Source of the DNA: a virus
Virus record (IMG/VR): IMGVR_UViG_3300045988_167582
Reading direction: 5' to 3' (one strand)
DNA length: 64,000 nucleotides
Under the pieces are notes generated by a model that saw only the letters and a list, made by a program, of their open reading frames with translations, was not told where the DNA came from and made no database searches. Positions 3,736 through 30,691 of the stretch are shown here, piece by piece (positions within the stretch are counted from its first letter, which is position 1; each line of letters opens with the position of its first letter). The position numbers were made by a program, and so were the translations under genes.

Positions 3736-4179
3736 ATGAGAGCAGTTGGTATTATTCGTAGAGTGGACGACCTCGGGCGCATTGTAATTCCAAAAGAAGT
3801 GCGGCGTTCTCTTCGCATCAGGGAGGGAGACCCGATGGAACTGTTTATCGAGGACGGCGGTGTGGTTTTTCGCAAATATAATGCTCTCGAAGAGGATATG
3901 TTCGACACCATACAAAAAGCAATGAAAGCCGGAGGTCGTAGCTACGCATTGTACGATAGGGATATTAAAAGAGAAAGTTCTCGTGGCTCTGGTTATCCGC
4001 GCAACGTTCCTGATGAGTGGTTCGATAAGCGCGGGGAGTTTACCTATTTAGGTAATGCTGTTTACACCATTTATCGCTATGATGATGTATGGGGCTATAT
4101 TTGCACCGATAGGACAAACGATGATTACATCAGAGGAGTCATATCGATGGCAATCAGTTCTCTTGTAGATGACGCATAA
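3736..4179 (+). CDS. AbrB/SpoVT-family transcriptional regulator
   Basis: N-terminus VGIIRRVDDLGRIVIPKEVRRSLRIREGDPMELF matches the swapped-hairpin AbrB domain. Confidence 0.8.
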   Translation: MRAVGIIRRVDDLGRIVIPKEVRRSLRIREGDPMELFIEDGGVVFRKYNALEEDMFDTIQKAMKAGGRSYALYDRDIKRESSRGSGYPRNVPDEWFDKRGEFTYLGNAVYTIYRYDDVWGYICTDRTNDDYIRGVISMAISSLVDDA

Positions 4180-4192
4180 GGAGGAAACCATA

Positions 4193-4789
4193 ATGGCACA
4201 GAAAATTATTTTACAGCCGGATGAGGTGTGGGATTACTTCGTGGAGCACGAAGAGGAATGCGATGGATGTATGTTTGAAATCGCATCATGCTCCGAATAC
4301 GGAACAGCGGTGTATCTGTCGAGAAGTTCCAAGGGCGTTGGATGTATCACCGTGGAAGCGGACGACCAAGAGGTTTATAACGAGGAAGTTATTGACGCTG
4401 AGGATACAAAAAAGACGGTGCAGAAGGTTTATGACGATTATCTCACGGATAAAGTTATAGAAATTCTGTCTGATTTTGAACCGCAGGAAGACGATACCCT
4501 CCAAGACCAAGAGGATGAAATCGATATGCGTGAGGAAGAACTGGATAGCCTTATCTGGGATTTTGTGATGGGTGTTTTTGGCGGAGACACCTATACGGAT
4601 TTCGATTGTACCGGAGAAGTTCTCGATGACCTGAAAGACCATTTTCTCGAATATATGTACCGTAAACACGGGTTCGATATTTATCGCCCGATGGTTCTCG
4701 AGGACGAGGACGGAACAGAATTTTTTGAGGAATATCCATACGAACATATGGTGTTCGATGACGAGGATAACCCGATGTATAAGGATTGA
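4193..4789 (+). CDS. highly acidic hypothetical protein
   Basis: aaggagg RBS; D/E-rich throughout (e.g. DDTLQDQEDEIDMREEELD, VLEDEDGTEFFEE). Confidence 0.7.
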   Translation: MAQKIILQPDEVWDYFVEHEEECDGCMFEIASCSEYGTAVYLSRSSKGVGCITVEADDQEVYNEEVIDAEDTKKTVQKVYDDYLTDKVIEILSDFEPQEDDTLQDQEDEIDMREEELDSLIWDFVMGVFGGDTYTDFDCTGEVLDDLKDHFLEYMYRKHGFDIYRPMVLEDEDGTEFFEEYPYEHMVFDDEDNPMYKD

Positions 4790-4952
4790 TTTCCCCGATA
4801 GCGGCTCAATGCTGCCTTAATTATAGAGACCAGCCGGTTCCTCCCCTCCGGCTGGTATGCTGCACGATTGGCTCTGCCTCCTCGTGGCGTGCGGCGGATG
4901 CGGGTTTATGCCCGTAACGAAAAGAGTACATTGAATGTAAGGAGTACATATC

Positions 4953-5345
4953 ATGGCAAAAATCACTATCGCAGGGAAGGCTGTCGTTGTCACTTCCACC
5001 CTTAAGCTGGAGGACATCAAGACTGTCGGTAAGTATCGCCCCAAGGCTCTCTCCGTTTACGGCGGTGAGGACGGAAAGGAGGAGGTCTTTGCTATCAAGG
5101 CAGGCTGTAACGAGAATTTCTCCAAGTATGGCATCTGCTTTGCGGATGAGACTCGCGACGAGAAGCTCGCGACCATCACGATGACCACCAACTACGACGG
5201 CGATGACATCGAGGGTTTCGTTGCCGACTATTTCGGTGCAGCTATCATCTACCTCAATAAGCTTGAGGAGACTCTTCCCGCCGTCATCGAGGAAATCGCC
5301 GCAGAGCGTGCCTCTGTGATGAGCAACATCACCGTTATCGCCTAA
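4953..5345 (+). CDS. hypothetical protein (130 aa)
   Basis: aaggag RBS, with a strong terminator directly downstream; no motif recognised. Confidence 0.7.
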   Translation: MAKITIAGKAVVVTSTLKLEDIKTVGKYRPKALSVYGGEDGKEEVFAIKAGCNENFSKYGICFADETRDEKLATITMTTNYDGDDIEGFVADYFGAAIIYLNKLEETLPAVIEEIAAERASVMSNITVIA

Positions 5346-5367
5346 GCGATTTCGGTAACGAACCGTG

Positions 5368-5394
5368 CCCGCCGCAGAAATGCGGCGGGTTTTC
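5368..5394 (+). terminator. intrinsic terminator
   Basis: cccgccgca-gaaa-tgcggcggg followed by tttt. Confidence 0.7.
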
Positions 5395-5440
5395 AAATCA
5401 ATATCAACCGAAAATTAAATGAATTAAAGGAGAATTGAAC

Positions 5441-5668
5441 ATGGTACAGGTTACTGTAGGTAATAACGTTAAGCGCGAAAAGGTTATCGTCGATACGCAC
5501 GCAACCCTTCGCTCCGTTCTTGAAGATGCGGGTGTGGATTACACTCGCGGTGTGATGCACCTCGATGGTTCTTCACTCAATCCGGGCGACCTTGATAAGA
5601 CCTTTGCCGATTTTGGCATCGGTGAAAAGTGCTTCCTTCTCAATGTCGTTAAGGCTGATAACGCCTAA
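5441..5668 (+). CDS. small beta-grasp / ubiquitin-like candidate (75 aa)
   Basis: aaaggag RBS. The strand-helix-strand pattern (VQVTVGN / KVIVDT / TLRSVLEDAG / VMHLDG / CFLLNVVK) has the size and periodicity of a beta-grasp fold. The C-terminus is ADNA, not GG. Confidence 0.5.
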   Translation: MVQVTVGNNVKREKVIVDTHATLRSVLEDAGVDYTRGVMHLDGSSLNPGDLDKTFADFGIGEKCFLLNVVKADNA

Positions 5669-5686
5669 TCAGTAGACACCCCGGAA

Positions 5687-5712
5687 CCCCGTCATGAAAA
5701 TGACGGGGTTTT
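5687..5712 (+). terminator. intrinsic terminator
   Basis: ccccgtca-tgaaaa-tgacgggg followed by tttt. Confidence 0.7.
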
Positions 5713-5716
5713 ATCT

Positions 5717-5802
5717 GGGGGATTGGCGGAACAGGCAGACGCAATGGACTTAAAATTCATCGCTTTGAAAGCGTACCGGTTCAAATCCGGTATCCCCCAC
5801 CA
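5717..5802 (+). tRNA. tRNA-Leu (anticodon TAA), class II, CCA encoded
   Basis: Acceptor gggggat/atccccc, anticodon arm atgga-cttaaaa-ttcat, long variable hairpin cgctttgaaagcg, T arm ccgg-ttcaaat-ccgg. Confidence 0.9.
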
Positions 5803-5830
5803 AATGAATTTATAAACAAGGAGAGGTTTT

Positions 5831-7306
5831 ATGTTTAGGCAGAAAGTTTGTCAAACGATGATGACTTCGGAGGCTGCTAATAACTTCTTCCAGCACATTA
5901 CGGGTGACAATTTGCACGGAGATGTGAGCTTTGTCTCTACTCTCCGAGCCTTGGTTGCTCCCAGAATGCAGGAAGGTGAGCGACTGAATGTTGTATTCAA
6001 TTCTACAAGATATTCGGCACAGGAAATTTCCAGCGTTCCTGCAAAGAATGCCGTCACAGCCATATTTAACGCCAGCGCTTGGGATGCAGGAACCATTATG
6101 GTTCATAGTTTTGCAAGCCAGTCCCAAGAGGACAACTACGCGTGTCTGGAACTATTGAAGAGCACATTTGAGTCTACCTATTCCGGATGGCATCGCCTCG
6201 AAAAGATTACGGACTTCTTCCGTAAAAGATTCTATGCCCTTTGCTTTATCCATCCGGAAACAAAGCGAGTGGCTCTCTTCATAGACAATCTGGATTTACC
6301 CAAATTGCATTATCTTCAGTGTGCAGTTTTTGCATTTCTCCCGTGGTATTTCGACCCCGAGAAGGGTGTTTCGGAAGAAGAGATGGCGCTTATCGAATCA
6401 CTCAGAGATAAATCTTCTTCAAAGTATGAAGCGTGTATCGCAAGAATTGCGGAAAAATATGATTTCAAAACAGCCCGTGTTCGCCAGCTGCTTGCAGGGT
6501 TTGAAACGAGATTCGAGCGCAGAAAATGCGAAGAACTCAGAGAAAGCATTTCTACAATTGACTTGGAAATCGATAGACTCAGCAATTCAATTTCCCATCA
6601 TCTTATGCAGCGTAGGGACAACGAGGCTAAGCTCCTTGGTTTGGAACTGAAAATCGAGCAGGATAATGGTGGTGAGTCGGAGATTATGGATTACTTCCTG
6701 AGCAACGACAGGTTAATCCTCGAAAGAGTGACGAACTCCGAGATGGTTTTTGTTGTAAAGGCAAATTGCGAGTATTTCGATGAGGATATGGCAAAATCCA
6801 TTATCGATAAGCCTGAGAGCTATGTGTACAGACCGGCTGGCAGAGCTTGTAATGCGTATATCCAGAGCGAGGATATGAAGCGGCTCATGTATGCCATCTT
6901 TATCGACCAAACTGTAAAGCTTCGTTTCTGTGCGGCTTATAGTTTTGACATTGGTTGTCAAAGTGTCGGAGGAATCAGAGGTTATGGCTACGGTGCGGAA
7001 TGTGCAGGGTATATGCCGAATACGCACATCGACAAATTTTCCTGCATGGGAAATTATCAGAATACTATCAACAGAATGCTGAAAGATAACAATTATATCA
7101 GTGCAATCGAACAGTGCATCGCTTCTTGCAAGAGTCTGAATTTTGCGGACAGCACGGTTATGAGCGAGTTTATGTGTTGTATGTACGGGCTTCAGGGGCA
7201 CACCAACGTGAACAACAGATGTCTGGAACTGCCTAACGAACAGATTGTTACACCGAAAGAAGCAGCTAATTGGCTGAGAGAACAGGAGTGTGGCAGCAAT
7301 GAGTAA
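5831..7306 (+). CDS. hypothetical protein (491 aa) with a central coiled coil and a Cys-rich C-terminus
   Basis: aaggagagg RBS; the central segment (ELRESISTIDLEIDRLSNSISHHLMQRRDNEAKLLGLELKIEQ) looks coiled-coil; the C-terminal third has many Cys. Confidence 0.75.
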   Translation: MFRQKVCQTMMTSEAANNFFQHITGDNLHGDVSFVSTLRALVAPRMQEGERLNVVFNSTRYSAQEISSVPAKNAVTAIFNASAWDAGTIMVHSFASQSQEDNYACLELLKSTFESTYSGWHRLEKITDFFRKRFYALCFIHPETKRVALFIDNLDLPKLHYLQCAVFAFLPWYFDPEKGVSEEEMALIESLRDKSSSKYEACIARIAEKYDFKTARVRQLLAGFETRFERRKCEELRESISTIDLEIDRLSNSISHHLMQRRDNEAKLLGLELKIEQDNGGESEIMDYFLSNDRLILERVTNSEMVFVVKANCEYFDEDMAKSIIDKPESYVYRPAGRACNAYIQSEDMKRLMYAIFIDQTVKLRFCAAYSFDIGCQSVGGIRGYGYGAECAGYMPNTHIDKFSCMGNYQNTINRMLKDNNYISAIEQCIASCKSLNFADSTVMSEFMCCMYGLQGHTNVNNRCLELPNEQIVTPKEAANWLREQECGSNE

Positions 7307-8240
7307 GAATATCAAAATCACAGATGAGAGTCTTAATGAAGTACGCAAGGCTTTTGAGGAAGCATTGTCCACGGGAAAGTTCTCCGACGGGAAAATCACT
7401 TTCACAAAAACTCTCGGCATCGTCAATCGAAAGGCTACCATTTTCTTCACTGAGCTTGCTTGGCTCAAGATGCAGACTCTTATACGAGAGTTCGATAAAG
7501 AGGTTGCTTGGCACGGTATCGCCAAGCGCGGAGAAGACGCTTCTAAGGATGAGTATTACATAACGGATATTCTGGTGTATCCGCAGGAAGTGACAGGAGC
7601 AACGGTGAGCACCGACCAAGAAAAATACCAGATGTGGCTTATGAGCCACGATGATGAGGTTTTCAATAACATTCGGATGCAGGGACATTCTCATGTAAAT
7701 ATGGATGTCACTCCGAGTAGTGTGGACACATCGCTCTATGACCGGATTCTTGAGCAACTTGACGACGATATGTTCTACATCTTCATGATTTGGAATAAGC
7801 GCAAAGAAAAGACCATCAAGATTTACGACCTTGCTAAGAATATTTTTTTCGATACTTCGGATGTCACAGTTGAAGTCCTTGAAGATGGAACCGGTATCGA
7901 AAAATTTCTCAATGACGCGAAGGACGCGGTAAAGGACAAGCCTACCACACCGACATCGACATATCAAAGCCCCTATCGTAGTTCTTATGGGTATGGCGGA
8001 TATTATGGCGGATACGGCAGTTCCTACGGAGGCTCTGCAGAAGAGAAAGAGCCAAAAAAGACCGAGTCGCCCAAAGAAACAGCGAGTTCTCAGAAAAAAC
8101 GAAAGGGAAAGCGCAAAGGGAAACGCAAAGGTAAACACGGCGGGGTCAACAATACCTGTGATGAGAGTAAGCAAGTGACTCTTTGGGATGGGTATGATTA
8201 TGACGATATGGATGACCCGTTCTATGCAAGAGGTTATTAA
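7299..8240 (+). CDS. JAB/JAMM (MPN+) metalloprotease-domain protein with a low-complexity tail
   Basis: GHSHVNMDVTPSSVD fits HxHx7Sx2D exactly, with an upstream E (EVAWHG). The C-terminal tail contains SSYGYGGYYGGYGSSYGGS and KKRKGKRKGKRKGK. Confidence 0.8.
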   Translation: MSKNIKITDESLNEVRKAFEEALSTGKFSDGKITFTKTLGIVNRKATIFFTELAWLKMQTLIREFDKEVAWHGIAKRGEDASKDEYYITDILVYPQEVTGATVSTDQEKYQMWLMSHDDEVFNNIRMQGHSHVNMDVTPSSVDTSLYDRILEQLDDDMFYIFMIWNKRKEKTIKIYDLAKNIFFDTSDVTVEVLEDGTGIEKFLNDAKDAVKDKPTTPTSTYQSPYRSSYGYGGYYGGYGSSYGGSAEEKEPKKTESPKETASSQKKRKGKRKGKRKGKHGGVNNTCDESKQVTLWDGYDYDDMDDPFYARGY

Positions 8241-8256
8241 CAGGAGGTGATTTTCA

Positions 8257-8817
8257 ATGACAAGGCAGGAGTTTCTTGACGATGTTTACGATTTCAGAGA
8301 GCTGATGGATTTTTGTTATGATAATGACTGTGGGATTTGCGACGACATCTACGATGATGAGTCGAAGGATGAATATATCAATGAACATCTTTCGGATATG
8401 GCAGATAACGCAGATGACTGGCAAAGTCTCTATCGTACTTTGGATTATATCCCGACCGGGTATGATTACTATCGTTTAGATGATTACGACGATTTCAACG
8501 GTTTGGACGATGACGACTTCGATGACTACAAAAACGATGTGCTCGAGTGGATGGATGATAATGAATACTGGGACGAGGACGAAGATGACGAGGAAGAGTA
8601 TTTCCCTCCGGAAGAAGAGTATAGCGAAGAGGAAGACGACGAAGAGTCATGTGAAGAAGATATGCAGCCTGTCGATGAGCTTTTCAGCTTATGCAGTGAG
8701 CAGCTCAGAGTAATCGATGCAAAAGAAAAAGCCGAAGAGCAGAGGTGCAATGAAGAATTTCTTGCTTTTACAGCGGAAATCGGCGTGGTAGTAAACGAGG
8801 GAGGCAAAGCAGTATGA
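8257..8817 (+). CDS. extremely acidic hypothetical protein
   Basis: caggagg RBS; long D/E runs (DDYDDFNGLDDDDFDDY, WDEDEDDEEEYFPPEEEYSEEEDDEE). Confidence 0.7.
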   Translation: MTRQEFLDDVYDFRELMDFCYDNDCGICDDIYDDESKDEYINEHLSDMADNADDWQSLYRTLDYIPTGYDYYRLDDYDDFNGLDDDDFDDYKNDVLEWMDDNEYWDEDEDDEEEYFPPEEEYSEEEDDEESCEEDMQPVDELFSLCSEQLRVIDAKEKAEEQRCNEEFLAFTAEIGVVVNEGGKAV

Positions 8818-9488
8818 TGGATTTAAGCAAATCTTATGATTTTTTTCAGCCTGAAAAGGACGACGCCCGTATCCATATTGTTGGGTGCGGCTCTGTTGGT
8901 TCCACCATTGCGGAAAACTTGGCTCGCTGTGGTGTAACAAAGATGACCCTGTGGGATTTTGATAAGGTTGAAGCCCACAATATTGTCAATCAGATGTTCC
9001 GACAGCAGGATGTCGGTAAGTTAAAGGTCGAAGCTCTTAAAGATATTCTGAGCGACATCAACCCCGACATCATCGATGATGTCGAACTCAAACCTGACGG
9101 CTGGAAAGGAAGGCTTATGTCCGGCTACATCTTCCTCTGTGTGGACAGTATTGAGCTACGCAGAGAAATTGTCGAGAAGCATATGGATAGTCCATATGTA
9201 AAAGCGGTATTTGATTTTCGTACACTTCTTGAAAGTGCGCAGCACTACGCCGCTGACTGGTCGGATTATAAAATGAAAAAGGACTTATTGAAGTCCATGC
9301 AGTTCTCGCACGAAGAAGCCGCCGTGGAAACTCCAGTATCGGCTTGCGGGGTCACGCTCGGAGTTGCGACGACAGTGCGTGCGGTTTGCGCTATTGGTGT
9401 TGCGAACTTTATCAGGTTCTCCAAGGGTCAGGGCATTAAGAAGTTTATGAACATTGACCTGAGTACATTCATGCTTGACGCTTTTTAA
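8814..9488 (+). CDS. E1-like ThiF/MoeB-fold (Rossmann) protein
   Basis: IHIVGCGSVGSTIAENLARCGV ... LWDFDKVEAHNIVNQMF resembles the GxGxxG plus DxDxV..N..RQ nucleotide-binding core of ThiF/E1 adenylyltransferases. Confidence 0.7.
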   Translation: MMDLSKSYDFFQPEKDDARIHIVGCGSVGSTIAENLARCGVTKMTLWDFDKVEAHNIVNQMFRQQDVGKLKVEALKDILSDINPDIIDDVELKPDGWKGRLMSGYIFLCVDSIELRREIVEKHMDSPYVKAVFDFRTLLESAQHYAADWSDYKMKKDLLKSMQFSHEEAAVETPVSACGVTLGVATTVRAVCAIGVANFIRFSKGQGIKKFMNIDLSTFMLDAF

Positions 9489-9504
9489 CAGATAAACGAA
9501 CTTA

Positions 9505-9758
9505 GACTGTAATGAAATGTGTTTCTTTGAAACAGCTTTTCGCTGTCAGCAAAAGTAACAACTTGAGAGGAAAATGGTAGCCCCAAGGAGGTGTCTTCTT
9601 CGAAGGTGGGGACTGTACACTCCGGAAATCACGAGGACATTAACCATCAGATGTAAGAATATTCCATTGTCCCGCAATAAGTCATCAAATAAGAAAGCCA
9701 TCAGTGCCGGTTCCCAGACTCGAATCGACGCCCGCTTCTATCTATAATGATTACAGTC
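9505..9758 (+). ncRNA. retron-like structured RNA element, copy A (directly upstream of the RT)
   Basis: Ends pair (gactgtaat 9505-9513 with attacagtc 9750-9758); G at 9514; conserved hairpin cttttcGCTGTCAGCaaaag at 9536-9555; G at 9749 precedes the 3' strand. Confidence 0.6.
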
Positions 9759-9779
9759 AAACATAAAGGAGGTATCCGC

Positions 9780-10922
9780 GTGGTTTATATCACAGTAAAG
9801 CAACCACCAATGTATAGACAAATGACATTGGAAGAGCTTCTTTTTGGAACGGAAATTAAACCTTCCATAGTAAACAACAACATAACAAACACGCATACAT
9901 ATGTTGTTGACAGAGTAAACGATAAATATCGCAAGCGAATCGATGTCGATAAGATGATTGAAAAGCTTGCACAATTCAATCAGCAAACAGAATCGCTCAG
10001 AGTGCATCAGCCACGCACAGATTTATATTATACATTCCATATTCCTAAGAAAAGCGGCGGGCTTCGGCGTATCGATGCTCCGAACGATGAGCTGAAGAAC
10101 GCACTTAGAAATTTGAAAGAGATATTCGAGAATGATTTCGGATGCCTGTATCACACAAGTGCGTTTGCATATATAAAAGGACGCGGAACAATTCCTTCGG
10201 TTAAACGACATCAGGCAAATGAGTCCAAGTGGTTTGGAAAATATGACCTTTCTAACTTCTTTGGAAGTACAACGCCTGACTTCATTATGAAGATGTTTTC
10301 AATGATTTTCCCTTTCTCGGAAATCGTTAAGACGAGTGATGGTAAGGCAGAACTCAGTAAAGCACTCGACCTTGCCTTTTTGAACGGAGGTCTTCCGCAG
10401 GGAACGCCGCTTTCGCCGACGCTGACAAACATTATGATGATTCCGATTGACCATAAGTTATCCAATGGACTGCGTAACTTCAATAATCAGTCCTTTGTTT
10501 ACACAAGGTACGCGGATGATTTTCTTGTATCCTCAAAATACGAGTTTAAGTTTATGGATGTAGAAAAATTCATCGTTGATGTGTTGGCAGAGTTTGGTGC
10601 CCCGTTCACAATCAAGACAGCCAAAACCAGATACGGCTCGTCTGCCGGTTCCAATTGGAACCTCGGAGTTATGCTGAATAAGGATAACAACATCACAATC
10701 GGTCATAAAAAGAAAAGACAGTTTCAAGCAATGCTCAGTTCATATGTCCTTGATAAACAGAACGGGCATCCGTGGGATAGAACCGATATCCAGACCTTAG
10801 AGGGTTATCGGAATTATTATCGCATGGTAGAGGGAGAGACTATCGATAAAATTGTCGAGCACATTGGAGAGAAGTATCATATTGATATAGTTGCTTCCCT
10901 TCATGACGATTTACGAACATAA
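9780..10922 (+). CDS. reverse transcriptase, retron/group-II-like RVT_1 type, stand-alone
   Basis: YYTFHIPKKSGGLRRIDAPNDELK, KYDLSNFFGS, GLPQGTPLSPTLTN, YTRYADDFLVSS. GTG at 9780 lies 7 nt after aggagg; alternative starts are ATG 9747 (inside the RNA stem) and ATG 9810. Confidence 0.9.
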   Translation: MVYITVKQPPMYRQMTLEELLFGTEIKPSIVNNNITNTHTYVVDRVNDKYRKRIDVDKMIEKLAQFNQQTESLRVHQPRTDLYYTFHIPKKSGGLRRIDAPNDELKNALRNLKEIFENDFGCLYHTSAFAYIKGRGTIPSVKRHQANESKWFGKYDLSNFFGSTTPDFIMKMFSMIFPFSEIVKTSDGKAELSKALDLAFLNGGLPQGTPLSPTLTNIMMIPIDHKLSNGLRNFNNQSFVYTRYADDFLVSSKYEFKFMDVEKFIVDVLAEFGAPFTIKTAKTRYGSSAGSNWNLGVMLNKDNNITIGHKKKRQFQAMLSSYVLDKQNGHPWDRTDIQTLEGYRNYYRMVEGETIDKIVEHIGEKYHIDIVASLHDDLRT

Positions 10923-10928
10923 CAAAGA

Positions 10929-11194
10929 TTTCTGTAATGAATATCCATTTTTATGGGGCTTTTTGCTGTAAGCGGAAGTGACGCGATGGTAAGGGAAAAG
11001 ACGCAGGGAACTGGCACGCAAATCAATCCCTCCTCGCAGAGATGACCAGCGAACAAATCAATACACAAGAAATGAGCTGTTGCTACACAACAGTCCAATC
11101 CGTCAGCAAGCAACAAATACACCTGCACCTCGCTTCCGAGGCGCCTGAGCCGCACCGGTATCCCGCCTGCTGCTGACATTGTAGATTACAGAAA
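10929..11194 (+). ncRNA. retron-like structured RNA element, copy B
   Basis: tttctgtaat 10929-10938 pairs with attacagaaa 11185-11194; G at 10939; hairpin ctttttGCTGTAAGCggaag at 10959-10978; G at 11184. Confidence 0.6.
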
Positions 11195-11204
11195 CAACTA
11201 AAAT

Positions 11205-11472
11205 GGATAAGCTGATAATGCAATTGCTTTGCCTATGCAAACGCGCTCTTTGCTGTCAGTGAGAGTAACAACTTGAGAAGAAAATAGAGGATGAAGAAGA
11301 CGACAGAATAAAATTAAAGAATATATCAAGTAATCCAAATAACTTGGTGTAGACCCTGAAGACATTGTCCCACAACAACACACTGAACTATCCTCTGGAT
11401 TTCCTCATCTGGAACACCGGTACCTGCATCCCAGTTTTGTGCAGCTGTTCCCTTGTAGATTATCACTTATCC
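11205..11472 (+). ncRNA. retron-like structured RNA element, copy C
   Basis: ggataag(c)tgataat 11205-11219 pairs with attatcacttatcc 11459-11472; G at 11220; hairpin ctctttGCTGTCAGTgagag at 11246-11265. About 40 nt after the hairpin is near-identical to copy A. Confidence 0.6.
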
Positions 11473-11914
11473 AACAAAAGAATTGTTCCTTTTAAGGAGC
11501 TCCCGAAAATCTATTGTAACACAATAGGTTTTCGAGAATTCTACAACCGCCGAGGTTGTAAAACGCTATATTGCTCTGATGCCAGAGCTTTATAAACCCT
11601 CCCGAAAGCGCACCGGCAAACTATGAATTGGCAATCGACTCATAGGTAAGAAACGACAGGTAATGAGCCGACCTATCTGGATTGCGTCCAGACAACGCAA
11701 GTTGGTCGAAATTCGGGAGATATATTTTTAATGCTTTAAGACGAGGTGAAAAATATTCGCACGGATATACTTGAAAGAAAGACGGAAATCCTCAAATCCT
11801 CAATTGGATAAATGAGAAAAAGACCAAAGCTTTTATAAGTCGTCAATTATTGTGTCCAAATTGTCACGCGGTACAAAATCTCATGATGATTCGAGGCGAA
11901 TTTATAATAAGAAT

Positions 11915-11987
11915 GTGGGCTAAACGAGAACATAGTTAATAATGTGCCCATTAGGGCGTGTAAGTTCAAGTCTCATTGCCCACACCA
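11915..11987 (+). other. degenerate tRNA-like sequence (possible tRNA pseudogene)
   Basis: 73 nt ending in acca; acceptor gtgggc/gcccac and a TTCAAGT T-loop are present, but I cannot fold a proper D arm or 7-nt anticodon loop. Confidence 0.3.
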
Positions 11988-11990
11988 CTT

Positions 11991-12070: not shown

Positions 12071-12147
12071 GTGGGTATAGCTCAACTGGTAGAGCACCTC
12101 TCTTTTAATGAGGGAGTCCGGCGTTCGAGGTCGCCGTACCCACACCA
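12071..12147 (+). tRNA. tRNA-Lys (anticodon TTT), CCA encoded
   Basis: Acceptor gtgggta/tacccac, D arm gctc-aactggta-gagc, anticodon loop cttttaa. T stem cggcg/cgccg has an 8-nt loop by my fold. Confidence 0.75.
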
Positions 12148-13045: not shown

Positions 13046-15082
13046 ATGGGATTTGTTGATTTTAGAACAAAAATTCAGGAACAATTCAATTCGATGGCGG
13101 AGAATTCTGCGCGGTTATTTGTCGTCGATGTCAATAAGGACGAAATGTGGAATTTGTATTTAGACAGCTTTCCTGTCGGTACAAACAATATTTATCGTGA
13201 GCGAAGAGAACACGACTGCTCTTGTTGCAGACAGTTTATCAAGCAGATTGGCAACGTTGTTGCCATCAACAATGGTGAGGTTTCTTCCATTTGGGATATT
13301 GATATGTCGGATGCAACCTATCAGACAGTTGCAAAGGCAATGTCGGAGTATATTAAGTCTAAGACTGTCGTAAATGTCTTTTTCTGTAAAGAGAGCAGAG
13401 TCGGAACGATGCATAATTTCGAACTGTTACCTACCGGAGAAAGTAAGAAATGGGAGCATTTTTACGCTGAAATTCCTGCGATTGCGCTTGAAAGAAGACG
13501 CTCTATCGGAGATGTTCAGGGCGAGTTTAGGTCTACTAAGGATGTTTTTAAGCGCTCTCTCGAAGAAATTACTGAGGAAAGCGTGATAACCGTTCTTGAA
13601 CTGATTTCTCAGCGTTCTCTTTATAGAGGAGAAGAGTGGAAGAACCCGCTTAATATTTTCCTTGAGTATAAGCGAGCTTATTCAGCTCTGCCCGACACGC
13701 AAAAGGACTTATACGCATGGGAAAAATCTGTTAAGGCAGGCGGAGCGATTGGTCGCATCCGCAATCACAGTATCGGTACGCTCCTTGTAAATATCAGCGA
13801 GGGTATGGAACTTGATTTAGCCGTTCGTAAATACGAACAAATAGTTGCTCCTGTAAATTATAAACGTCCCAAGGCGATTTTCACAAAGAAGATGTTAGAA
13901 GAGGCGCAAAAGACAATCGAAGAACTGGGGTATATGTCTGCTCTCGGTCGTCGGTTTGCAACTCTTGACGATATTACCGCAAACAACATTCTGTTTTCAA
14001 ATAAAGACTCCGCAAGACGCATTACGGGAGTCTCTATTTTCGACGAGATGAAAAAAGACATTCCTGTGAACCCGAAAAAGTTTTCGAGAATCGAGGAAAT
14101 CGCTATTTCGGATTTTGTGTCCGATGTCCTGCCAAACGCACAGGAAGTCGAGCTGTTCCTCGAGAGCCGTCATTCCGGTAATCTGGTGTCTCTCATCTCT
14201 CCAAAGGATAAGACGAGCAAGAGTATGTTCAAGTGGAACAACGGGTTTAGCTGGACGTATACAGGAAACATTGCAGACAGCACGATGAAAGAAAATGTTA
14301 AGGCTGCCGGTGGTAAGGTTGATGGCGTGCTGCGTTTTTCAATTCAGTGGAATGACGAGGACTATAATCCTAATGACTTCGATGCTCACTGCACCCAACC
14401 TAATGGCAATCATATTTACTTCGGCTCCAAACATGACGCTCGCACGAGCGGCGAACTCGATGTTGATATTATCAATCCGACCCGTAATAAGGCAGCGGTT
14501 GAGAATATTACTTGGCTGAGTAAGGGACGAATGCCGAAGGGTACATATCGGTTCTTTGTTAATTGTTATAGTAACAGAGGTGGCAGAAGCGGATTCAAAG
14601 CGGAAATTGAGTTCGACGGTCAGATTTTTTCCTTTGATTACAACAAAGAGCTTCGCACAGGTGAAAATGTTTATGTTGCGGATGTTGAATTCGACGGTGA
14701 AAACTTCCGCCTTATCGAGAAACTTTCGTCCGGTGTGTCTACCCGTGACCTCTGGGGGCTTAAAACAAACCAGTTTATTCCGATTTCTGTGATTTGCTAT
14801 TCACCGAACTACTGGGACGAGCAGACTGGTGTGGGTAATCGCCACTACTTCTTTATGTTAAAGGATTGTGTTAATCCGGAGAGACCGAACGGTATGTTCA
14901 ATGAATATCTCAAGGAAGAACTGTTAAAACATAAGCGCGTTTTCGAGGCGCTTGGTAGCAAAATGGCTGTTGAAGACTCTGCCGACCAGTTATCCGGTGT
15001 GGGATTTTCATCTACACGCAGAAATGATGTTGTTGTCAGGGTAAAAGGTGCTACCGAAAGAGTACTCAAAATTAAATTTTAA
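13046..15082 (+). CDS. large hypothetical protein (678 aa)
   Basis: Uninterrupted ORF with a gaggtg RBS; no catalytic motif recognised. The C-terminal third (LRFSIQWND...DFDAHC...LDVDIINP...) looks like a beta-sandwich module. Confidence 0.8.
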   Translation: MGFVDFRTKIQEQFNSMAENSARLFVVDVNKDEMWNLYLDSFPVGTNNIYRERREHDCSCCRQFIKQIGNVVAINNGEVSSIWDIDMSDATYQTVAKAMSEYIKSKTVVNVFFCKESRVGTMHNFELLPTGESKKWEHFYAEIPAIALERRRSIGDVQGEFRSTKDVFKRSLEEITEESVITVLELISQRSLYRGEEWKNPLNIFLEYKRAYSALPDTQKDLYAWEKSVKAGGAIGRIRNHSIGTLLVNISEGMELDLAVRKYEQIVAPVNYKRPKAIFTKKMLEEAQKTIEELGYMSALGRRFATLDDITANNILFSNKDSARRITGVSIFDEMKKDIPVNPKKFSRIEEIAISDFVSDVLPNAQEVELFLESRHSGNLVSLISPKDKTSKSMFKWNNGFSWTYTGNIADSTMKENVKAAGGKVDGVLRFSIQWNDEDYNPNDFDAHCTQPNGNHIYFGSKHDARTSGELDVDIINPTRNKAAVENITWLSKGRMPKGTYRFFVNCYSNRGGRSGFKAEIEFDGQIFSFDYNKELRTGENVYVADVEFDGENFRLIEKLSSGVSTRDLWGLKTNQFIPISVICYSPNYWDEQTGVGNRHYFFMLKDCVNPERPNGMFNEYLKEELLKHKRVFEALGSKMAVEDSADQLSGVGFSSTRRNDVVVRVKGATERVLKIKF

Positions 15083-16034: not shown

Positions 16035-16838
16035 GTGTTAAAAGTTAATTGCAAACCGGTTGAATTAAACAAATTTCCGGACGGTACTTTTTTGATTAAG
16101 GAGAAACCGTCCGGCGATAGGGCTCTTATCTCGTGGAAGTTTGAAAATAATGAGGAGCTTGTTGCACTGATTTATATTACTCATCATCTGCGTGCCCACG
16201 GCGTTAAGACAATTCATTTGTTTATGCCGTATATCCCCAATGCACGGCAGGACAGGGTAAAAACAGATGAGGATGTATTTACACTCAAATATTTTGCTTG
16301 GGTTGTTAATTCTTTGGAGTTTGATAAGGTCATGGTGGTAGACCCCCATTCATCTGTATCTGAGGCTTTGATTGAGCGTATAAAGATTATATCTCCCGCC
16401 GATTTAATCAACATCGCTTACAATCGTGTCTGTGAGGAATGCTCGTGTGGAGATAATGATGTCTTGATGTTCTATCCTGACGAAGGCGCGATGAAACGAT
16501 ATTCCGGAATGATTTCGGCGCCCTATGCTTTCGGCATTAAAGAGCGCGACTGGGCTACTGGAAAGATTAAAGGATTATCTGTTTTTGAGGGTGAGAGCTC
16601 CGTCAAAGGCAAGAACATCCTGATTGTTGATGACATCAGTAGTCGAGGCGGAACCTTCTACCACAGCGCCAAAAAACTTAAAGAACTCGGCGCTGAGAAG
16701 GTATTTCTTTATGTAACGCACTGTGAAAACACAATCCTCGAAGGCGAGGTTTTATCCAGTGGGCTGATTGAGAAGGTTTATACCACGGACAGCCTGCTTA
16801 CGATAAAACACGAAAAGATTGAGGTGATGGAGCTGTGA
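16035..16838 (+). CDS. ribose-phosphate pyrophosphokinase (Prs)-family protein; possibly an Adps-type enzyme
   Basis: GTG start; NILIVDDISSRGGTFYHSAKKLKELGA is the PRPP-synthetase/PRTase ribose-phosphate loop. Confidence 0.8.
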   Translation: MLKVNCKPVELNKFPDGTFLIKEKPSGDRALISWKFENNEELVALIYITHHLRAHGVKTIHLFMPYIPNARQDRVKTDEDVFTLKYFAWVVNSLEFDKVMVVDPHSSVSEALIERIKIISPADLINIAYNRVCEECSCGDNDVLMFYPDEGAMKRYSGMISAPYAFGIKERDWATGKIKGLSVFEGESSVKGKNILIVDDISSRGGTFYHSAKKLKELGAEKVFLYVTHCENTILEGEVLSSGLIEKVYTTDSLLTIKHEKIEVMEL

Positions 16839-18310
16839 TTAAAATGAATCCAATGCTTTTGATTGACTTTTATAAAGCCGTTCACGCCGAAATGCTACCG
16901 AAGCACATGACAAAATCGGTATCCTATTATACCCCTCGTATGAGTCGAGTGAATCGCTGGGATAAGGTCGTCATGTTCGGTTTGCAGGGATTTATTAAGA
17001 CATATCTCATCGATTACTTCAATGAGGAGTTCTTTGCGAAACCTTTTAAGACGGTGATGGCTGATTATCAGCGAGTAATGGACGCGTCTCTTGGAAAGGG
17101 CATTTATGGTATGAAAAAAATCGAAAATCTCCATAAGCTTGGCTATCTTCCGATTGAGATTGTCGCCATTCCAGAGGGCACCCGTGTTCCGATGCATTGC
17201 CCAATGTTTGGAATCACAAATACACTCCCTGATTTTGCTTGGCTTCCCCAGTCTCTCGAAAGCCTCATCTCCGCTGAGAGCTGGCATCCTATGCTGGCTG
17301 CTACCGTAGGATACACCTACAGAGAAATCGTAAATCATTATTACGGTTTAACTTGTGATGACAACATTCCTCGAGCAAAGGCGCTTGGCGCGTTTGATTT
17401 TCGAGGCGAAGAAAGCTTGGAGTCTGCCATTAAAGCCGGAGCAGGGTGGTGTATGTCATTCCTGAATACAGCAACAGTCCCTGTTATTCCGTATTTGGAG
17501 AGTGTATATAATTGTGACTGCACTAAGGAGCTTGTGGCTTTTGGCAGCCCGAGTACAGAGCACTCTGTTATGTGCTCGAACTATGCGGTTGATGGTGATG
17601 AAATCACACTACTCAGACGGCTACTCACGGAGATTTATCCCAATACCAGTTTCTCCGCCGTGCTTGACTCATATGATTACTGGAATGTAATTGACAATAT
17701 TCTTCCGCAAATCAAGGATGAGATTCTTGCGCACAATGGATGTATGTTAATGCGCGGTGATTCCGGTGACTGCGTAGAGGTTGTGACAAAGACGGTTTTC
17801 AAGCTCTGGGGAGAATTCGGCGGTACAATTAACAGTAAGGGGTACAAGGTACTTGACCCCCATGTAAAGGCTATCTACGGAGACAGCATTACCGTTCAGC
17901 GCTGTGAGGAGATTTACAAGATTTTGATGGGGCACGGATTTGCCTGCTCCAATGTCGCTCTTGGCGTCGGTTCTTTCTCTTTTCAGTGTATTGAAGAAGA
18001 CGGAATATTAAAGCCATTTACGAGAGACACATTTAGTTCCTGTATTAAGGCAACCTACTGCGAAATTGACGGGAAGCCTCTCCCAATTTTCAAAAACCCC
18101 AAAGACGGTGGATTCAAAAAGAGTCAAAAGGGGTGCTGTGTGGTTTACAAAGACAACGATAACGGACTCTGTTATAAGGACGAGTTTACTTGGGACGAAG
18201 CATATAGTGATTCACGAAATATGCTTGTACCCGTGTTTAAGGACGGCGTAATGACAAAGGAGTTTACTCTTGAAGAGGTCAGAGCCAATCTGCATGGAGG
18301 TAATTTCTAA
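16835..18310 (+). CDS. nicotinamide phosphoribosyltransferase (NAMPT/NadV)-family protein; possibly Namat-type
   Basis: N-terminal LLIDFYKAVH and the overall length and pattern fit the NAMPT family; 4-nt overlap with the Prs-like gene. Confidence 0.8.
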   Translation: MIKMNPMLLIDFYKAVHAEMLPKHMTKSVSYYTPRMSRVNRWDKVVMFGLQGFIKTYLIDYFNEEFFAKPFKTVMADYQRVMDASLGKGIYGMKKIENLHKLGYLPIEIVAIPEGTRVPMHCPMFGITNTLPDFAWLPQSLESLISAESWHPMLAATVGYTYREIVNHYYGLTCDDNIPRAKALGAFDFRGEESLESAIKAGAGWCMSFLNTATVPVIPYLESVYNCDCTKELVAFGSPSTEHSVMCSNYAVDGDEITLLRRLLTEIYPNTSFSAVLDSYDYWNVIDNILPQIKDEILAHNGCMLMRGDSGDCVEVVTKTVFKLWGEFGGTINSKGYKVLDPHVKAIYGDSITVQRCEEIYKILMGHGFACSNVALGVGSFSFQCIEEDGILKPFTRDTFSSCIKATYCEIDGKPLPIFKNPKDGGFKKSQKGCCVVYKDNDNGLCYKDEFTWDEAYSDSRNMLVPVFKDGVMTKEFTLEEVRANLHGGNF

Positions 18311-30675: not shown

Positions 30676-30691
30676 CCAAGGAGGCATTCTT

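Follow-up and report, generated by a model that had tools for sequence, protein, structure and literature searches.

Genes for ubiquitin-like proteins (Ubls), E1-type activating enzymes and JAB/JAMM peptidases are found together in several described systems. Bil (BilABCD) operons encode a small Ubl in a gene of its own, alongside a JAB/JAMM peptidase and an E1, and follow a conjugation logic without an E3. Type II CBASS uses Cap2, an E2-E1 fusion whose E1-type domain measures about 225 aa, together with the JAB antagonist Cap3, and both serve a CD-NTase. The tail of the E. cloacae CD-NTase (...TGRFA) has been caught in the active site of Cap2 as a conjugate with AMP (10.1101/2022.03.31.486616), a precedent for an E1-family domain that adenylates a C-terminal Ala. 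Bub (6E/DUF6527) operons compact Ubl, E1 and JAB parts into non-canonical variants of the cascade, in which Ubl is fused to E2 and JAB to E1, or else E2 to E1, alongside a DUF6527 serine protease, and the PRTRC cassettes of plasmids and ICEs combine ThiF-family, JAB-like and small Ubl-like proteins with others of unknown function. Trios of Ubl, E1 and JAB also occur in bacterial sulfur-assimilation clusters, known sulfur carriers terminate in Gly-Gly, and a phage-borne pairing of a Ubl (TAPI) with a JAB plus NlpC/P60 protein (TAPK) exists in Lambda/T1 tail assembly (PMC1779556).

Here we describe an operon type for which we found no prior description in the literature and which looks like a virus-owned protein-tagging system. 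It lies at positions 4,953-9,488 of the window, the 64,000-nt stretch of IMG/VR virus record IMGVR_UViG_3300045988_167582 that was analysed. An earlier note had taken the co-occurrence of Ubl, JAMM and E1-like genes for a ubiquitin-type conjugation cassette, a reading that is supported by the analyses below, as the tests of fold, RadC relationship and gene linkage all came out in its favour.

A conserved block of phage genes

ORF calling, ARAGORN, Rfam and motif reading bore out the positions and motifs of the six plus-strand genes and the tRNA that had been read from the bare letters (Table 1). Five of the genes form a conserved plus-strand block in the order p130-Ubl-p491-JAMM-E1, with a reverse transcriptase (RT) gene downstream. 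In loci taken from IMG/VR, GenBank MT835544 and MAGs of Oscillospiraceae, Lachnospiraceae, Christensenellaceae, Defluviitaleaceae and others, this order is kept in 98 of 99 cases, with JAMM identity down to 34%, and the linkage of E1 to the other cassette genes, on which the earlier note had staked its reading, is retained in every related locus recovered. Because cassette genes served as the bait for retrieving every locus, this constancy is conditional. The operon is conserved across phages of gut Clostridia, in a group that is very large and diverse, and p130 and the RT belong to the conserved block. The invariance of the cassette motifs in 90-102 orthologues is beyond chance.

Flanking genes, spacers, tRNA inserts and the acidic gene vary, while gene order and tight spacing hold down to 23-34% protein identity. 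Depending on the phage, the block is found on either side of a shared 678-aa gene, and it is missing from most phages that share this neighbour. As read from the sequence, the JAMM gene start overlaps the 3' end of p491 and the E1 start overlaps the acidic gene by 4 nt. The cassette sits in the early/auxiliary arm of the genome, amid tRNA, NAD salvage and RNA repair genes; all its genes are oriented like the lytic genes, and a CI/LexA-like repressor gene lies on the opposite strand.

Table 1. Features of the cassette and its surroundings (window coordinates)
Feature	Position	Strand	Description
Possible HDV-like self-cleaving ribozyme	4857..4931	+	about 25 nt upstream of the 130-aa gene; uncertain member
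p130	4953..5345	+	orphan, 130 aa; first gene of the conserved block
Terminator-like hairpin and U-tract	5367..5394	+	after p130; 10-bp GC-rich stem, -21.7 kcal/mol, z -3.7
Ubl	5441..5668	+	75 aa from ATG; predicted single beta-grasp; ends ...VVKADNA
Terminator-like hairpin and U-tract	5683..5714	+	after the Ubl gene; 13-bp stem, -21.2 kcal/mol, z -4.3
tRNA-Leu(UAA)	5717..5802	+	Ubl-p491 spacer; ARAGORN and Rfam
p491	5831..7306	+	orphan, 491 aa; N-terminal alpha/beta domain, long helix, C-terminal domain
JAMM/JAB metalloprotease	7299..8240	+	313 aa from ATG 7299
Acidic protein	8257..8817	+	186 aa, 37.6% Asp+Glu, pI 4.05
E1-like adenylating enzyme	8814..9488	+	224 aa, single ThiF-type domain, Pfam ThiF 83.4 bits
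Structured-RNA 5' module	9514..9570	+	two hairpins, then GTAACAAnTTG; retron-like ncRNA candidate
Retron-type RT	9747..10922	+	NCBIfam retron_St85_RT, PADLOC RT_II-A

The Ubl and its C-terminus

The suggestion that the 75-aa protein (77 aa from an alternative TTG start at 5435) is a beta-grasp was upheld by its AF2 model (pLDDT 89.2, pTM 0.75), which has the order beta-beta-alpha-beta-(short helix)-beta and whose top Foldseek matches in the PDB are Ubl domains, ubiquitin, SUMO2, NEDD8, TtuB and a bacterial Ubl (TM about 0.6-0.72). The fold matches include 8tyx, a bacterial Ubl bound to a deubiquitinase. At the level of the predicted structure, we regard the beta-grasp Ubl as shown. It is also the most conserved protein of the block, with a median identity of 83% versus 49% for p491.

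The Ubl ends in ADNA and not in GG, a worry that the C-termini of its orthologues resolve. Across them, a nearly invariant Lys71 is followed by x-D-N-A, or the end reads ...KADGA, ...KAYGG or ...IGG. Among 196 Ubl sequences matching the pattern, ...KADNA ends 165 and ...KADGA seven; distant orthologues have ...KADGA plus a tail, ...KAYGG or ...IGG, and in two of them the stop follows immediately after GG. The penultimate Asn, nearly invariant within the main clade, gives way to Gly in divergent orthologues, and the position after it holds Ala or Gly. Judged from these alignments, the ...KADNA end is the diverged equivalent of the di-glycine end. The motif is followed by 0-5 variable residues (none in 125 sequences; A, AA, R, LA, NK, VAA, LAA etc. 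in others), about a third of the sequences at hand bearing short extensions like those of ubiquitin-like precursors. A common variant (P0207 and L008; on 357 contigs) ends at ...KAD, indicating that the final two residues may be dispensable.

The JAMM and E1-like enzymes

The JAMM reading frame opens at GTG 7290 (7290-8240, 316 aa), and ATG 7299 is the most likely start because every orthologue starts with MSK or MAK and an AGGAG precedes this ATG by 10 nt. The motif HSHVNMDVTPSSVD occupies residues 133-146, with Glu71 upstream, and the perfect JAMM motif (E...HSHx7SSVD) recognised in the earlier note proved invariant at E71, H133, H135, S143 and D146 in 102 sequences, by which measure the metalloprotease is shown to be catalytically intact. 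Its tail is of low complexity, passing from a Tyr/Gly-rich part through GKRKGKRKGK to an acidic/aromatic end. Profile matches are weak only (2 of 22 Prok-JAB members, best E 0.0027; PADLOC JAB models, E 0.002; RPN11 in the PDB, E 0.12), and no RadC signal was found in profile and PDB sequence searches, which speaks against a RadC-type protein.

The 224-aa protein, previously described as a ThiF/E1-like Rossmann protein, scores above the Pfam ThiF cut-off (28.1 bits) with a match that begins at residue 17. Its nucleotide-binding motifs, GCGSVGS and DFDKVEAHNIVNQ, are invariant in about 100 orthologues, the invariant residues being G24-C-G26, G29, D48, D50, N56, N59, Q60, K71, D111, R116 and C178. 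Asn59 stands where the canonical E1 motif, ...NLxRQ, carries Arg. The best NCBIfam matches are ThiF models, and the protein falls far under the ThiF and MoeB equivalog cut-offs (82 vs 159 bits; 55 vs 266-377). Its best PDB sequence matches are true Ubl-activating enzymes, UBA5 (2e-15) and Uba1, ahead of MoeB and ThiF, which speaks against a plain ThiF/MoeB enzyme. The UBA5 similarity is limited to residues 18-89. For the C-terminal half (100-224) no PDB sequence relative could be detected, and since this half matches no solved E1 by sequence, Cys178 as the catalytic Cys is only a guess.

p491, p130 and accessory elements

No E2/UBC-like protein was detected with Pfam, NCBIfam or PADLOC, in line with the earlier observation that the cassette has no recognisable E2, and when the p491 C-terminal domain was compared with four eukaryotic E2s by hhalign, the probability came to 0.2%. 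p491 itself has no family match in Pfam, NCBIfam, PHROGs or PADLOC, and its AF2 model (pLDDT 84, pTM 0.48) no significant PDB fold match; the sole BFVD match is an uncharacterised Siphoviridae protein (E 2.7e-20), and public data hold 2166 clusters at 50% identity. Its description as a coiled-coil protein with a Cys-rich C-terminus is matched by a long predicted helix (224-277) and by 11 of 18 Cys within the last 180 residues, but only Cys405 is invariant, together with His399, Gly407 and Asn437 (100 sequences). From this conservation, p491, with His399 and Cys405, is the only candidate for a thioester carrier or ligase replacing E2/E3.

p130 is without a match in Pfam, NCBIfam, PHROGs, PADLOC and PDB sequences and without an invariant Cys. 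It heads the block in 98 of 99 loci, and L081 and L082 carry the p130-Ubl pair as a tandem duplication, making p130 a candidate stoichiometric partner or target of the Ubl. The strong terminator claimed after its gene was recovered as a GC-rich hairpin with a U-tract. Neither this hairpin nor the second one after the Ubl gene, which the earlier note did not mention, was listed by a simple terminator scan.

A tRNA occupies the Ubl-p491 spacer in 63 of 103 loci (tRNA-Leu(UAA) in 55 of these); the spacer is a frequent tRNA insertion point, and the tRNA is probably not a functional part of the cassette. The extremely acidic protein matches its description in composition, but is accessory rather than a constant member: its gene separates JAMM and E1 in only a subset of loci, and elsewhere JAMM abuts E1 and an acidic homologue lies 5-7 kb off or is absent. 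The HDV-like candidate upstream of p130 stays under threshold for three HDV-family Rfam models (best RF02682, 26.5 bits, gathering 44; E 0.0024 on a 181-nt stretch), and none of the candidates in eight loci reached the gathering score. In 42 of 100 loci the core of the candidate, CCTCCTCGTGG, immediately precedes the p130 orthologue, and such an element may set the 5' end of the p130 mRNA.

The adjoining reverse transcriptase

The RT matches NCBIfam retron_St85_RT over its full length (E 4.8e-52, 177 bits, cut-off 235) and PADLOC RT_II-A (E 1.9e-47); its true start is probably GTG 9780, preceded by AAGGAGG. A structured RNA lies in the E1-RT spacer (9489-9779), its 5' module being defined from an alignment of 14 spacers. 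Across 12 diverse loci, nine pairs of the second hairpin are kept, seven with compensatory changes, and a 41-nt motif of this RNA is repeated at 10958 and 11245. In 87 of 98 loci no more than 1.5 kb separates the RT from the E1 gene upstream of it, and in two more the RT overlaps the end of the E1 reading frame; in six it is displaced (1.5-6 kb off, or moved between JAMM and E1), and in three (L081, L082, L089) no RT was present in the flank. The core of five genes is thus able to occur with no RT beside it. In one locus (L001), the RT gene is followed by one for an RNase H. It is probable that the Ubl module has a functional partner in this retron-type RT with its RNA.

Proposed pathway and alternatives

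We judge it somewhat probable that the block is one operon-like module encoding a self-contained, phage-owned pathway of Ubl activation, conjugation and deconjugation. The Ubl would be produced in excess, an inference from the terminator hairpins that come after the p130 and Ubl genes, and would be synthesised mature (...K-A-D-N-A) or with a tail of 1-5 residues removed by the JAMM enzyme, which would later reverse conjugation. An E1 homodimer would adenylate the C-terminal Ala (Gly in divergent orthologues) and then probably take the Ubl onto Cys178. From there it might be passed to Cys405 of p491, with His399 and Asn437 as helpers and p491 substituting for the missing E2/E3, and finally be joined to an amino group of a target, either a host protein or p130, whose gene is duplicated along with that of the Ubl. 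Conjugation remains an untested inference, as does the most likely biological role, host takeover or counter-defence during lytic growth. Against this pathway stand the undetected E2, the unmatched C-terminal half of the E1, Asn59 in place of Arg and the common ...KAD variant; moreover, most Ubls need no processing, and the JAMM substrate is thus unproven.

A retron-like element of RT and ncRNA could instead be the core, with the Ubl/E1/JAMM set priming, restraining or executing its output much as Cap2/Cap3 serve the CD-NTase, and the whole unit acting as a superinfection-exclusion, abortive-infection or phage anti-defence device. We consider this unlikely, and a role tied to the RT is not excluded: the RT is of retron type, comes straight after E1 in about 90% of loci and travels together with the block, the RNA upstream shows compensatory changes, RNase H follows in L001, and the repressor gene suggests that the phage may be temperate. 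The loci with an absent or displaced RT, an E1-RT spacing that varies from 0 to 1500 nt and the shared lytic-gene orientation argue otherwise, and no retron type with Ubl, E1 or JAB partners was found in the literature searched. This explanation overlaps the conjugation pathway, as the chemistry could be identical. A sulfur-carrier pathway of the ThiS/MoaD/CysO/TtuB type, in which the E1 adenylates the Ubl, a phage cysteine desulfurase supplies a persulfide that turns it into a thiocarboxylate, p491 thiolates tRNA, DNA or a cofactor and the JAMM enzyme trims the tail or resolves adducts, is improbable in our estimate without being excluded. The known trios, the ThiF models, the TtuB match, a class-V aminotransferase/cysteine desulfurase at 40691-41899, many tRNA-related genes in the window and the invariant Cys of E1 and p491, which could relay a persulfide, all fit it. 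The desulfurase, however, is 31 kb distant, no acceptor enzyme of the PP-loop, ThiG, MoaE or CysM type was found in or adjoining the block, the E1 has neither CxxC zinc motifs nor a rhodanese part and lies far below the equivalog cut-offs, the dominant ...KADNA end is not Gly-Gly, and the Ubl is apparently in excess over the enzymes.

The E1 N-terminal half counts MccB, PaaA and TcdA among its relatives in the PDB (E 1e-11 to 3e-9), and a C-terminal Asn is what MccB acts on. With a nearly invariant penultimate Asn and an RT close by as well, the E1-like enzyme could adenylate the Ubl C-terminus or another carboxylate to yield a nucleotide-linked or cyclised product, or a Ubl joined to RT-made nucleic acid. 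We see little chance of this, given that Asn gives way to Gly in divergent Ubls, that the last residue is Ala or Gly and not Asn, that the enzyme (224 aa, ThiF match from residue 17) has no N-terminal peptide-clamp domain, and that a beta-grasp substrate with a JAMM enzyme is the signature of Ubl systems. Hardly any credence is left for genes adjacent merely through the synteny of related phages, even with all loci from one broad phage group and fetched by cassette bait, and with frequent synteny also of other neighbours, among them an acidic p206 gene on the upstream side (70 of 96 loci): order and spacing persist to 23-34% identity while flanks change, genes overlap at stops and starts, the block shifts relative to the 678-aa gene, and its three recognisable proteins are the exact trio that cooperates elsewhere.

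Comparison with known systems

The cassette meets the definition of neither PRTRC, CBASS Cap2/Cap3, Bil nor Bub, and its likeness to them is one of logic only. PRTRC likewise sets ThiF-family, JAB-like and Ubl-like proteins beside unknowns on a mobile element, but its ThiF model gives the E1 only 26.7 bits (cut-off 144.75), and no model of PRTRC proteins A-F and no ParB matched any cassette protein (NCBIfam). Bub operons are similarly compact and non-canonical, and the cassette showed no fusions and, in Pfam, no DUF6527. TAPI/TAPK lack an E1 and lie in the tail module, so that they offer processing only and no activation. The sulfur-carrier systems (ThiS/MoaD/CysO/QbsE with ThiF/MoeB and the JABs Mec or QbsD) likewise combine a minimal E1 of the homodimer type with a beta-grasp carrier, and their JAB trims off residues that follow the C-terminal motif, as proposed for the phage JAMM; they differ in that the phage C-terminus is mostly Asn-Ala and no acceptor enzyme accompanies it. 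UBA5, a single-domain homodimeric E1, is the closest solved relative of the E1 N-terminal half, the DxDKVE..N motif variant included, but UFC1-, UFL1- and UFSP-like partners of UBA5-UFM1 are absent from the cassette. Among retrons, type II-A with its St85/Sen2-like RT resembles the neighbouring RT and its upstream structured RNA, in the absence of a known retron effector and with a score below the family cut-off.

With Bil, the cassette shares the separate small Ubl gene, the peptidase, the E1 and the conjugation logic without an E3; it differs in its single-domain E1, its lack of a detectable E2, its two orphan proteins and RT, and its carriage by a phage instead of a host. The resemblance to CBASS lies in the size of the E1-type domain, the JAB antagonist, the activated C-terminal Ala or Gly and the linkage to a nucleic-acid/nucleotide polymerase-type enzyme, CD-NTase in one case and RT in the other. 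The match of PADLOC Cap2 models to the phage E1 (5e-19) does not extend beyond its N-terminal 70 residues, and NCBIfam 6A-MBL cap2_3 scores 67.8 bits (cut-off 320). The phage cassette is without the E2 fusion and the CD-NTase of CBASS and has instead a dedicated beta-grasp Ubl, so that the polymerase need not be the conjugated moiety.

Organization of the cassette

The six genes and the tRNA that an earlier note had listed in this region were all found on the + strand. The five-gene core consists of p130 and p491 (orphan proteins of 130 and 491 residues), Ubl (a ubiquitin-like protein), JAMM (a JAB-type metalloprotease) and E1 (a ThiF-type adenylating enzyme); an acidic gene is accessory, and a gene for a retron-type reverse transcriptase (RT) lies downstream. 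Reading frames overlap at the p491/JAMM and acidic gene/E1 junctions, and the start given for JAMM is the most likely one because every orthologue opens with MSK or MAK. The strong terminator proposed after the p130 gene is present as a hairpin with a U-tract and a second one follows the Ubl gene, although a crude terminator scan detected neither, while the composition of the supposedly very acidic protein is as had been described. About 25 nt 5' of the p130 gene lies a candidate HDV-like ribozyme (4857-4931, +) that remains sub-threshold (RF02682, 26.5 bits versus a threshold of 44; RF00094 and RF01787 also match, again sub-threshold), and a ribozyme-like core (CCTCCTCGTGG) occupies the equivalent position in 42/100 related loci.

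Features of the cassette and its RT gene in the window
Feature	Position	Strand	Remarks
p130 gene	4953-5345	+	ORF, 130 aa
Hairpin and U-tract 3' of p130 gene	5367-5394	+	
Ubl gene	5441-5668	+	ORF, 75 aa
Hairpin and U-tract 3' of Ubl gene	5683-5714	+	
tRNA-Leu(UAA)	5717-5802	+	between Ubl and p491 genes
p491 gene	5831-7306	+	ORF, 491 aa
JAMM gene	ORF 7290-8240, likely start ATG 7299	+	start from orthologue N-termini
Acidic gene	8257-8817	+	37.6% Asp+Glu
E1 gene	8814-9488	+	ORF, 224 aa, ThiF-type
RT gene	ORF 9747-10922, probable start GTG 9780	+	AAGGAGG ahead of GTG

A beta-grasp protein with an Asn-Ala end

The 75-aa protein, suspected of being a beta-grasp from its strand/helix periodicity, is indeed predicted to be one: its AlphaFold2 model is confident (pLDDT 89.2, pTM 0.75, with the order beta-beta-alpha-beta-helix-beta), and Foldseek against the PDB returned only ubiquitin-like domains, ubiquitin, SUMO2, NEDD8, TtuB and a bacterial Ubl (TM ~0.6-0.72). 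The family search of the protein gave nothing significant, only DUF2604 at E 0.015. Ubl has the highest median identity to the window in the block (83%, compared to 71% for E1, 62% for RT, 60% for p130, 56% for JAMM and 49% for p491).

The earlier note had doubted the protein on account of its ADNA end. This end is real, since ...KADNA is found in 165/196 sequences and the main clade reads ...VVK-A-D-N-A followed by a stop or by A, AA, AAA, VAA, NK, K, V, TSK or LAA, but it does not count against a Ubl role, as divergent orthologues from metagenome-assembled genomes (MAGs) read G-A or G-G at the same positions. These end in ...K-A-D-G-A plus 1-3 residues (loci L101-L104, L107, L111 and L115), ...K-A-Y-G-G-stop (L109) or ...I-G-G-stop (L106), and Gly-Gly ends are rare and confined to divergent sequences (L106, L109 and one ...KADGG). 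Because of these orthologues, Asn-Ala is taken to stand in the place of Gly-Gly. Between 0 and 5 variable residues follow N-A, G-A or G-G, an extension of the kind found on Ubl precursors. That an E1-family domain can activate a C-terminal alanine is known from Cap2 and the tail of the E. cloacae CD-NTase, ...GRFA (10.1101/2022.03.31.486616).

A common Ubl variant (P0207, from locus L008, on 357 contigs) ends ...KAD at a TGA codon, beyond which the frame runs on as LAGNAK-TAG (L008 2533-2562). Ochre read-through of this stop by a phage suppressor tRNA is not supported, given a TGA stop and LAGNAK in the frame beyond it.

The JAMM and E1 enzymes carry intact motifs

The JAMM motif called perfect from the sequence was recovered as HSHVNMDVTPSSVD at residues 133-146, and Glu71, His133, His135, Ser143 and Asp146 are invariant over 102 orthologues. 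The window protein has no Pfam match of its own, and other matches are weak (PADLOC JAB models at E 0.002, Prok-JAB in 2/22 members, RPN11 at E 0.12). JAB-clade Pfam matches among 22 diverse members were limited to Prok-JAB and one Toxin-JAB1, and none matched RadC at E up to 1, so that a RadC-type protein, which would have spoken against the cassette, finds no support. The last 100 residues are of low complexity, passing from a Tyr/Gly-rich stretch through GKRKGKRKGK to an acidic/aromatic end. Relatives of JAMM fall into 2373 clusters at 90% identity.

The ThiF/E1-like assignment is borne out by GCGSVGS together with DFDKVEAHNIVNQ and by a Pfam ThiF score of 83.4 bits (cut-off 28.1). E1 is a minimal 224-aa single-domain enzyme in which GxGxxG, DxD, K71 and D111 are invariant; the sole motif deviation recorded is Asn59, which replaces the Arg of canonical E1s. 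For the N-terminal half of E1, the closest matches are UBA5 (2e-15), Uba1, MoeB, UBA6, TcdA, MccB, Cap2 and ThiF. The C-terminal half carries an invariant Cys178, which could not be placed by aligning this half to solved E1s (no match), and CxxC zinc motifs are absent from the protein. Nor does E1 reach the equivalog cut-offs of plain ThiF/MoeB sulfur-transfer enzymes, scoring 82.2 bits against PRK08644 (cut-off 159) and 54.9 against MoeB (cut-off 376).

Two orphan proteins and the missing E2

Neither p130 nor p491 has a match in Pfam, NCBIfam, PHROGs, PADLOC or PDB sequences. The p491 model (pLDDT 84) comprises an N-terminal alpha/beta domain, a 54-residue helix and a C-terminal domain, and it found no PDB fold match (a resemblance to PAP/TUTase nucleotidyltransferases was non-significant, probability <0.35) and a single match in BFVD, an uncharacterised Siphoviridae protein. 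A search of the representative library returned 150 full-length family members and nothing else, and therefore provided no bridge to a known family. The p491 family alone falls into 2166 clusters at 50% identity, and the operon is thus a common, so far unnamed feature of gut viromes.

The earlier note had seen no recognisable E2, in agreement with the absence of UQ_con and Prok-E2 matches from every cassette protein. Only Arg39, His399, Cys405, Gly407 and Asn437 of p491 are invariant over 100 sequences, and the spacing P396-N397-x-H399-x5-C405...N437 recalls the HPN...Cys...Asn/Asp pattern of UBC proteins. A canonical E2 was nonetheless rejected: hhalign of the C-terminal domain with four eukaryotic E2s gave 0.2% probability, no consistent match came from scanning 35 members with Pfam and PADLOC, and Foldseek with the whole model found no E2. 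Cys405/His399 is a candidate E2 substitute only, a lead. For p130, a second beta-grasp was discarded (hhalign against Ubl, 2%), as was an E2, there being no invariant Cys, no PDB sequence match and no consistent PHROG match.

Conserved linkage across gut phages

Using the cassette genes as bait, we gathered 59 loci from IMG/VR (contigs mostly 50-130 kb), 4 more by exact-protein look-up, GenBank MT835544 (human faeces) and 54 loci in MAGs, whose bins belong mainly to families of the Clostridia (Oscillospiraceae, Lachnospiraceae, Acutalibacteraceae, Christensenellaceae, Defluviitaleaceae and others) and in which JAMM identity goes down to 34%. A nucleotide search of the INPHARED phages found no close relative, and tblastn only MT835544. 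A profile scan of all ORFs recovered the order p130-Ubl-p491-JAMM-E1 in 98/99 loci holding all five genes, the single exception having a duplication, so the linkage without which the cassette would have been in doubt is conserved. The p130-Ubl pair is in tandem duplicate in two loci (L081 and L082). Two members listed in the window hold less widely: the acidic gene is present there, but lies between JAMM and E1 in only a subset of loci, and the tRNA-Leu is embedded as claimed, with a tRNA in the Ubl-p491 spacer of 63/103 loci.

Cassette gene fusions, which would have served as Rosetta-stone evidence, were not found across 198 loci, the sole cases being two paralogous Ubl-domain fusions upstream. 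In these, Ubl-like domains are joined to unrelated domains a few kb from the cassette (L086 3111-3695 and L069 3010-3651); in one of the pair the Ubl is C-terminal and without the KADNA end, and in the other it is N-terminal (...TVVKD-ISEDCC...) and resembles a ubiquitin-fusion precursor.

As an independent bait we used a 678-aa gene (13046-15082, +), whose very conserved phage product is unknown and has no Pfam match; its relatives, 56-65% identical, occur on >280 IMG/VR phage contigs (~6-300 kb long among those listed), most without the cassette. The cassette was found within 10 kb in only ~10/80 phage loci, and in one of these it lies on the opposite side of the 678-aa gene; the module thus forms a separate unit that not every phage carries.

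Other elements occur nearby. An acidic 206-aa ORF (4169-4789, +) lies upstream of p130, has a homologue within 1.5 kb upstream in 70/96 loci and may belong more loosely to this neighbourhood. The related locus L002 holds a decayed block (3937-5533) with a C-terminal p491 fragment, an intact JAMM and a fragment of the acidic gene, without Ubl, E1 or RT and adjoining Thg1 and RtcB genes. RNAs near the cassette in relatives include a tmRNA gene, RAGATH-16 and 'drum' (L001 20102-20412 and 875-945; L018 12918-13027).

A retron-type RT as near-constant partner

RT matches retron_St85_RT at E 4.8e-52 (177 bits versus a family cut-off of 235) and PADLOC RT_II-A at E 1.9e-47. In 87/98 loci it follows E1 within 1.5 kb and in 2 more it overlaps the end of the E1 frame, while it is displaced in 6/98 and absent from the flank in 3/98; RT is a near-constant partner, yet the five-gene core can exist without an adjacent RT. 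The E1-RT spacer opens with two hairpins, the second of which keeps 9 pairs, 7 with compensatory changes, over 12 diverse loci. Three copies of a 41-nt motif lie around RT (9535-9575, 10958-10998 and 11245-11285), and the upstream RNA element recurs as a second, incomplete copy in the ORF-poor stretch of ~1 kb after RT (10923-11990). The near-constant partnership suggests a link of protein tagging with reverse transcription, for which there is no described precedent.

Genome setting

Auxiliary functions abound in the window, a phage arm in which the cassette genes are co-oriented with lytic and auxiliary genes. The window encodes seven tRNAs including a UUA-anticodon suppressor, an AbrB-like regulator, NAD-salvage functions (NAMPT, a PRPP-synthetase-like protein, NAD synthase), RNA-repair and DNA-joining functions (DNA ligase, Pnkp/Rnl, Thg1-like, RlaP, CCA-adding enzyme), a cysteine desulfurase, Pol III alpha, DnaB, primase and NrdD. 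The NAD-salvage and RNA-repair genes cluster (16035-19119, 24721-26946, 30536-31543 and 37449-39840), which suggests an anti-defence arm of the genome. The UUA tRNA, of ochre-suppressor type (12071-12147, +), adjoins tRNA-Glu, and just upstream of it (11904-11987) are a tRNA-like 3' end (GTTCAAGTCTCATTGCCCACACCA) and a matching 5' TGTGGGC, for which ARAGORN made no call. TAA is the stop codon in 6/7 cassette/RT genes. The only long minus-strand gene encodes a CI/LexA-type repressor (HTH and S24 peptidase; 43909-44712, -), and an MrpR-like tyrosine recombinase is encoded at 45918-46868 (+); the phage may be temperate or plasmid-like.

A proposed Ubl pathway and its alternatives

On balance we incline to view the cassette as a phage-owned pathway for Ubl activation, conjugation and deconjugation. 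The Ubl fold, the intact catalytic motifs, the C-terminal pattern of Ubl, the fixed linkage and the gene overlaps are all observed; conjugation itself, its target and its role are not shown. In such a pathway Ubl and p130 would be made in excess, as inferred from the hairpin that follows each gene, and JAMM would trim the Ubl tail and reverse conjugation. E1 would adenylate Ala75 of Ubl, perhaps forming a thioester at Cys178, and p491 might take Ubl through Cys405/His399 and then deliver it to p130 or a host protein.

Three points argue against a sulfur-carrier pathway, namely the Asn-Ala end of Ubl, ThiF/MoeB scores below threshold and the lack of an acceptor enzyme, and we consider it improbable. 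Non-protein chemistry of the MccB/TcdA kind appears more improbable still, and mere synteny without joint function can hardly be credited. A role subordinate to the retron-like element overlaps in part with the conjugation pathway and is doubtful, if less so than these. The most far-reaching version of the pathway, a speculation in which we place only limited trust, is that this is the first complete bacteriophage-owned Ubl conjugation pathway, in which a non-UBC Cys/His protein, p491, replaces E2/E3, and which is coupled to the retron-type RT and its RNA and deployed against host defences, mirroring host Bil and CBASS Cap2. If such a coupling exists, reverse-transcribed DNA might, for instance, be under the control of Ubl tagging or else direct it.

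Comparison with known systems

The interpretation of the region as a conjugation-type cassette holds: Ubl, E1 and JAMM are each present, no E2 is detected, and the logic is that of the generic prokaryotic Ubl-E1-JAB cassettes (PMC1779556). PRTRC, CBASS Cap2/Cap3, Bil and Bub each fail at a defining feature. For PRTRC, the phage E1 reaches only 26.7 bits against the ThiF model TIGR03736 (cut-off 144.75), and p130, Ubl, p491, JAMM, the acidic protein and the upstream genes have no NCBIfam match to ParB or proteins A-F. Cap2 of CBASS is an E2-E1 fusion, whereas the phage E1 is single-domain and PADLOC Cap2 models align to residues 17-86 only; moreover, type II CBASS has as substrate a CD-NTase whose C-terminus is conserved, and no CD-NTase/SMODS match exists in the phage cassette. 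Bil systems combine a tandem-domain E1 with an E2, in contrast to one ThiF stretch in a 224-aa protein and no E2. Bub (6E/DUF6527) operons carry Ubl-E2 and JAB-E1 fusions, or an E2-E1 fusion, with a DUF6527 protease (PMC11601596), whereas all phage genes are separate and lack a DUF6527 match. ThiS/MoaD sulfur carriers end in Gly-Gly, unlike the ...KADNA of the phage Ubl (165/196), and relative to ThiF/MoeB systems the phage E1 is below the equivalog score and the block has no acceptor enzyme. As to retrons, RT is below the retron_St85_RT cut-off and the upstream RNA has a covarying hairpin, with msr/msd and msDNA not established. The open-access literature searched yielded no phage-borne Ubl/E1/JAB operon, no retron-ThiF link and nothing relevant on DUF2604.

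Until now, accounts of Ubl conjugation in bacteria have presented it as a weapon of the host against phages (Bil, Bub, CBASS Cap2/Cap3), whereas here the toolkit is on the side of the virus, in a very large and diverse group of gut phages, and three abundant orphan families (p130, p491 and the phage JAMM clade) gain a functional context. If conjugation does take place, this compact set of five genes would allow the study of a Ubl cascade that works without an E2 and on an Asn-Ala C-terminus, and it would probably provide a Ubl carrier or ligase of a new class. Compared to the known systems, the cassette is a new operon variant: it belongs to the phage, lacks an E2, has a Ubl that ends in Asn-Ala, includes two abundant orphan proteins and is partnered by a retron-type RT.
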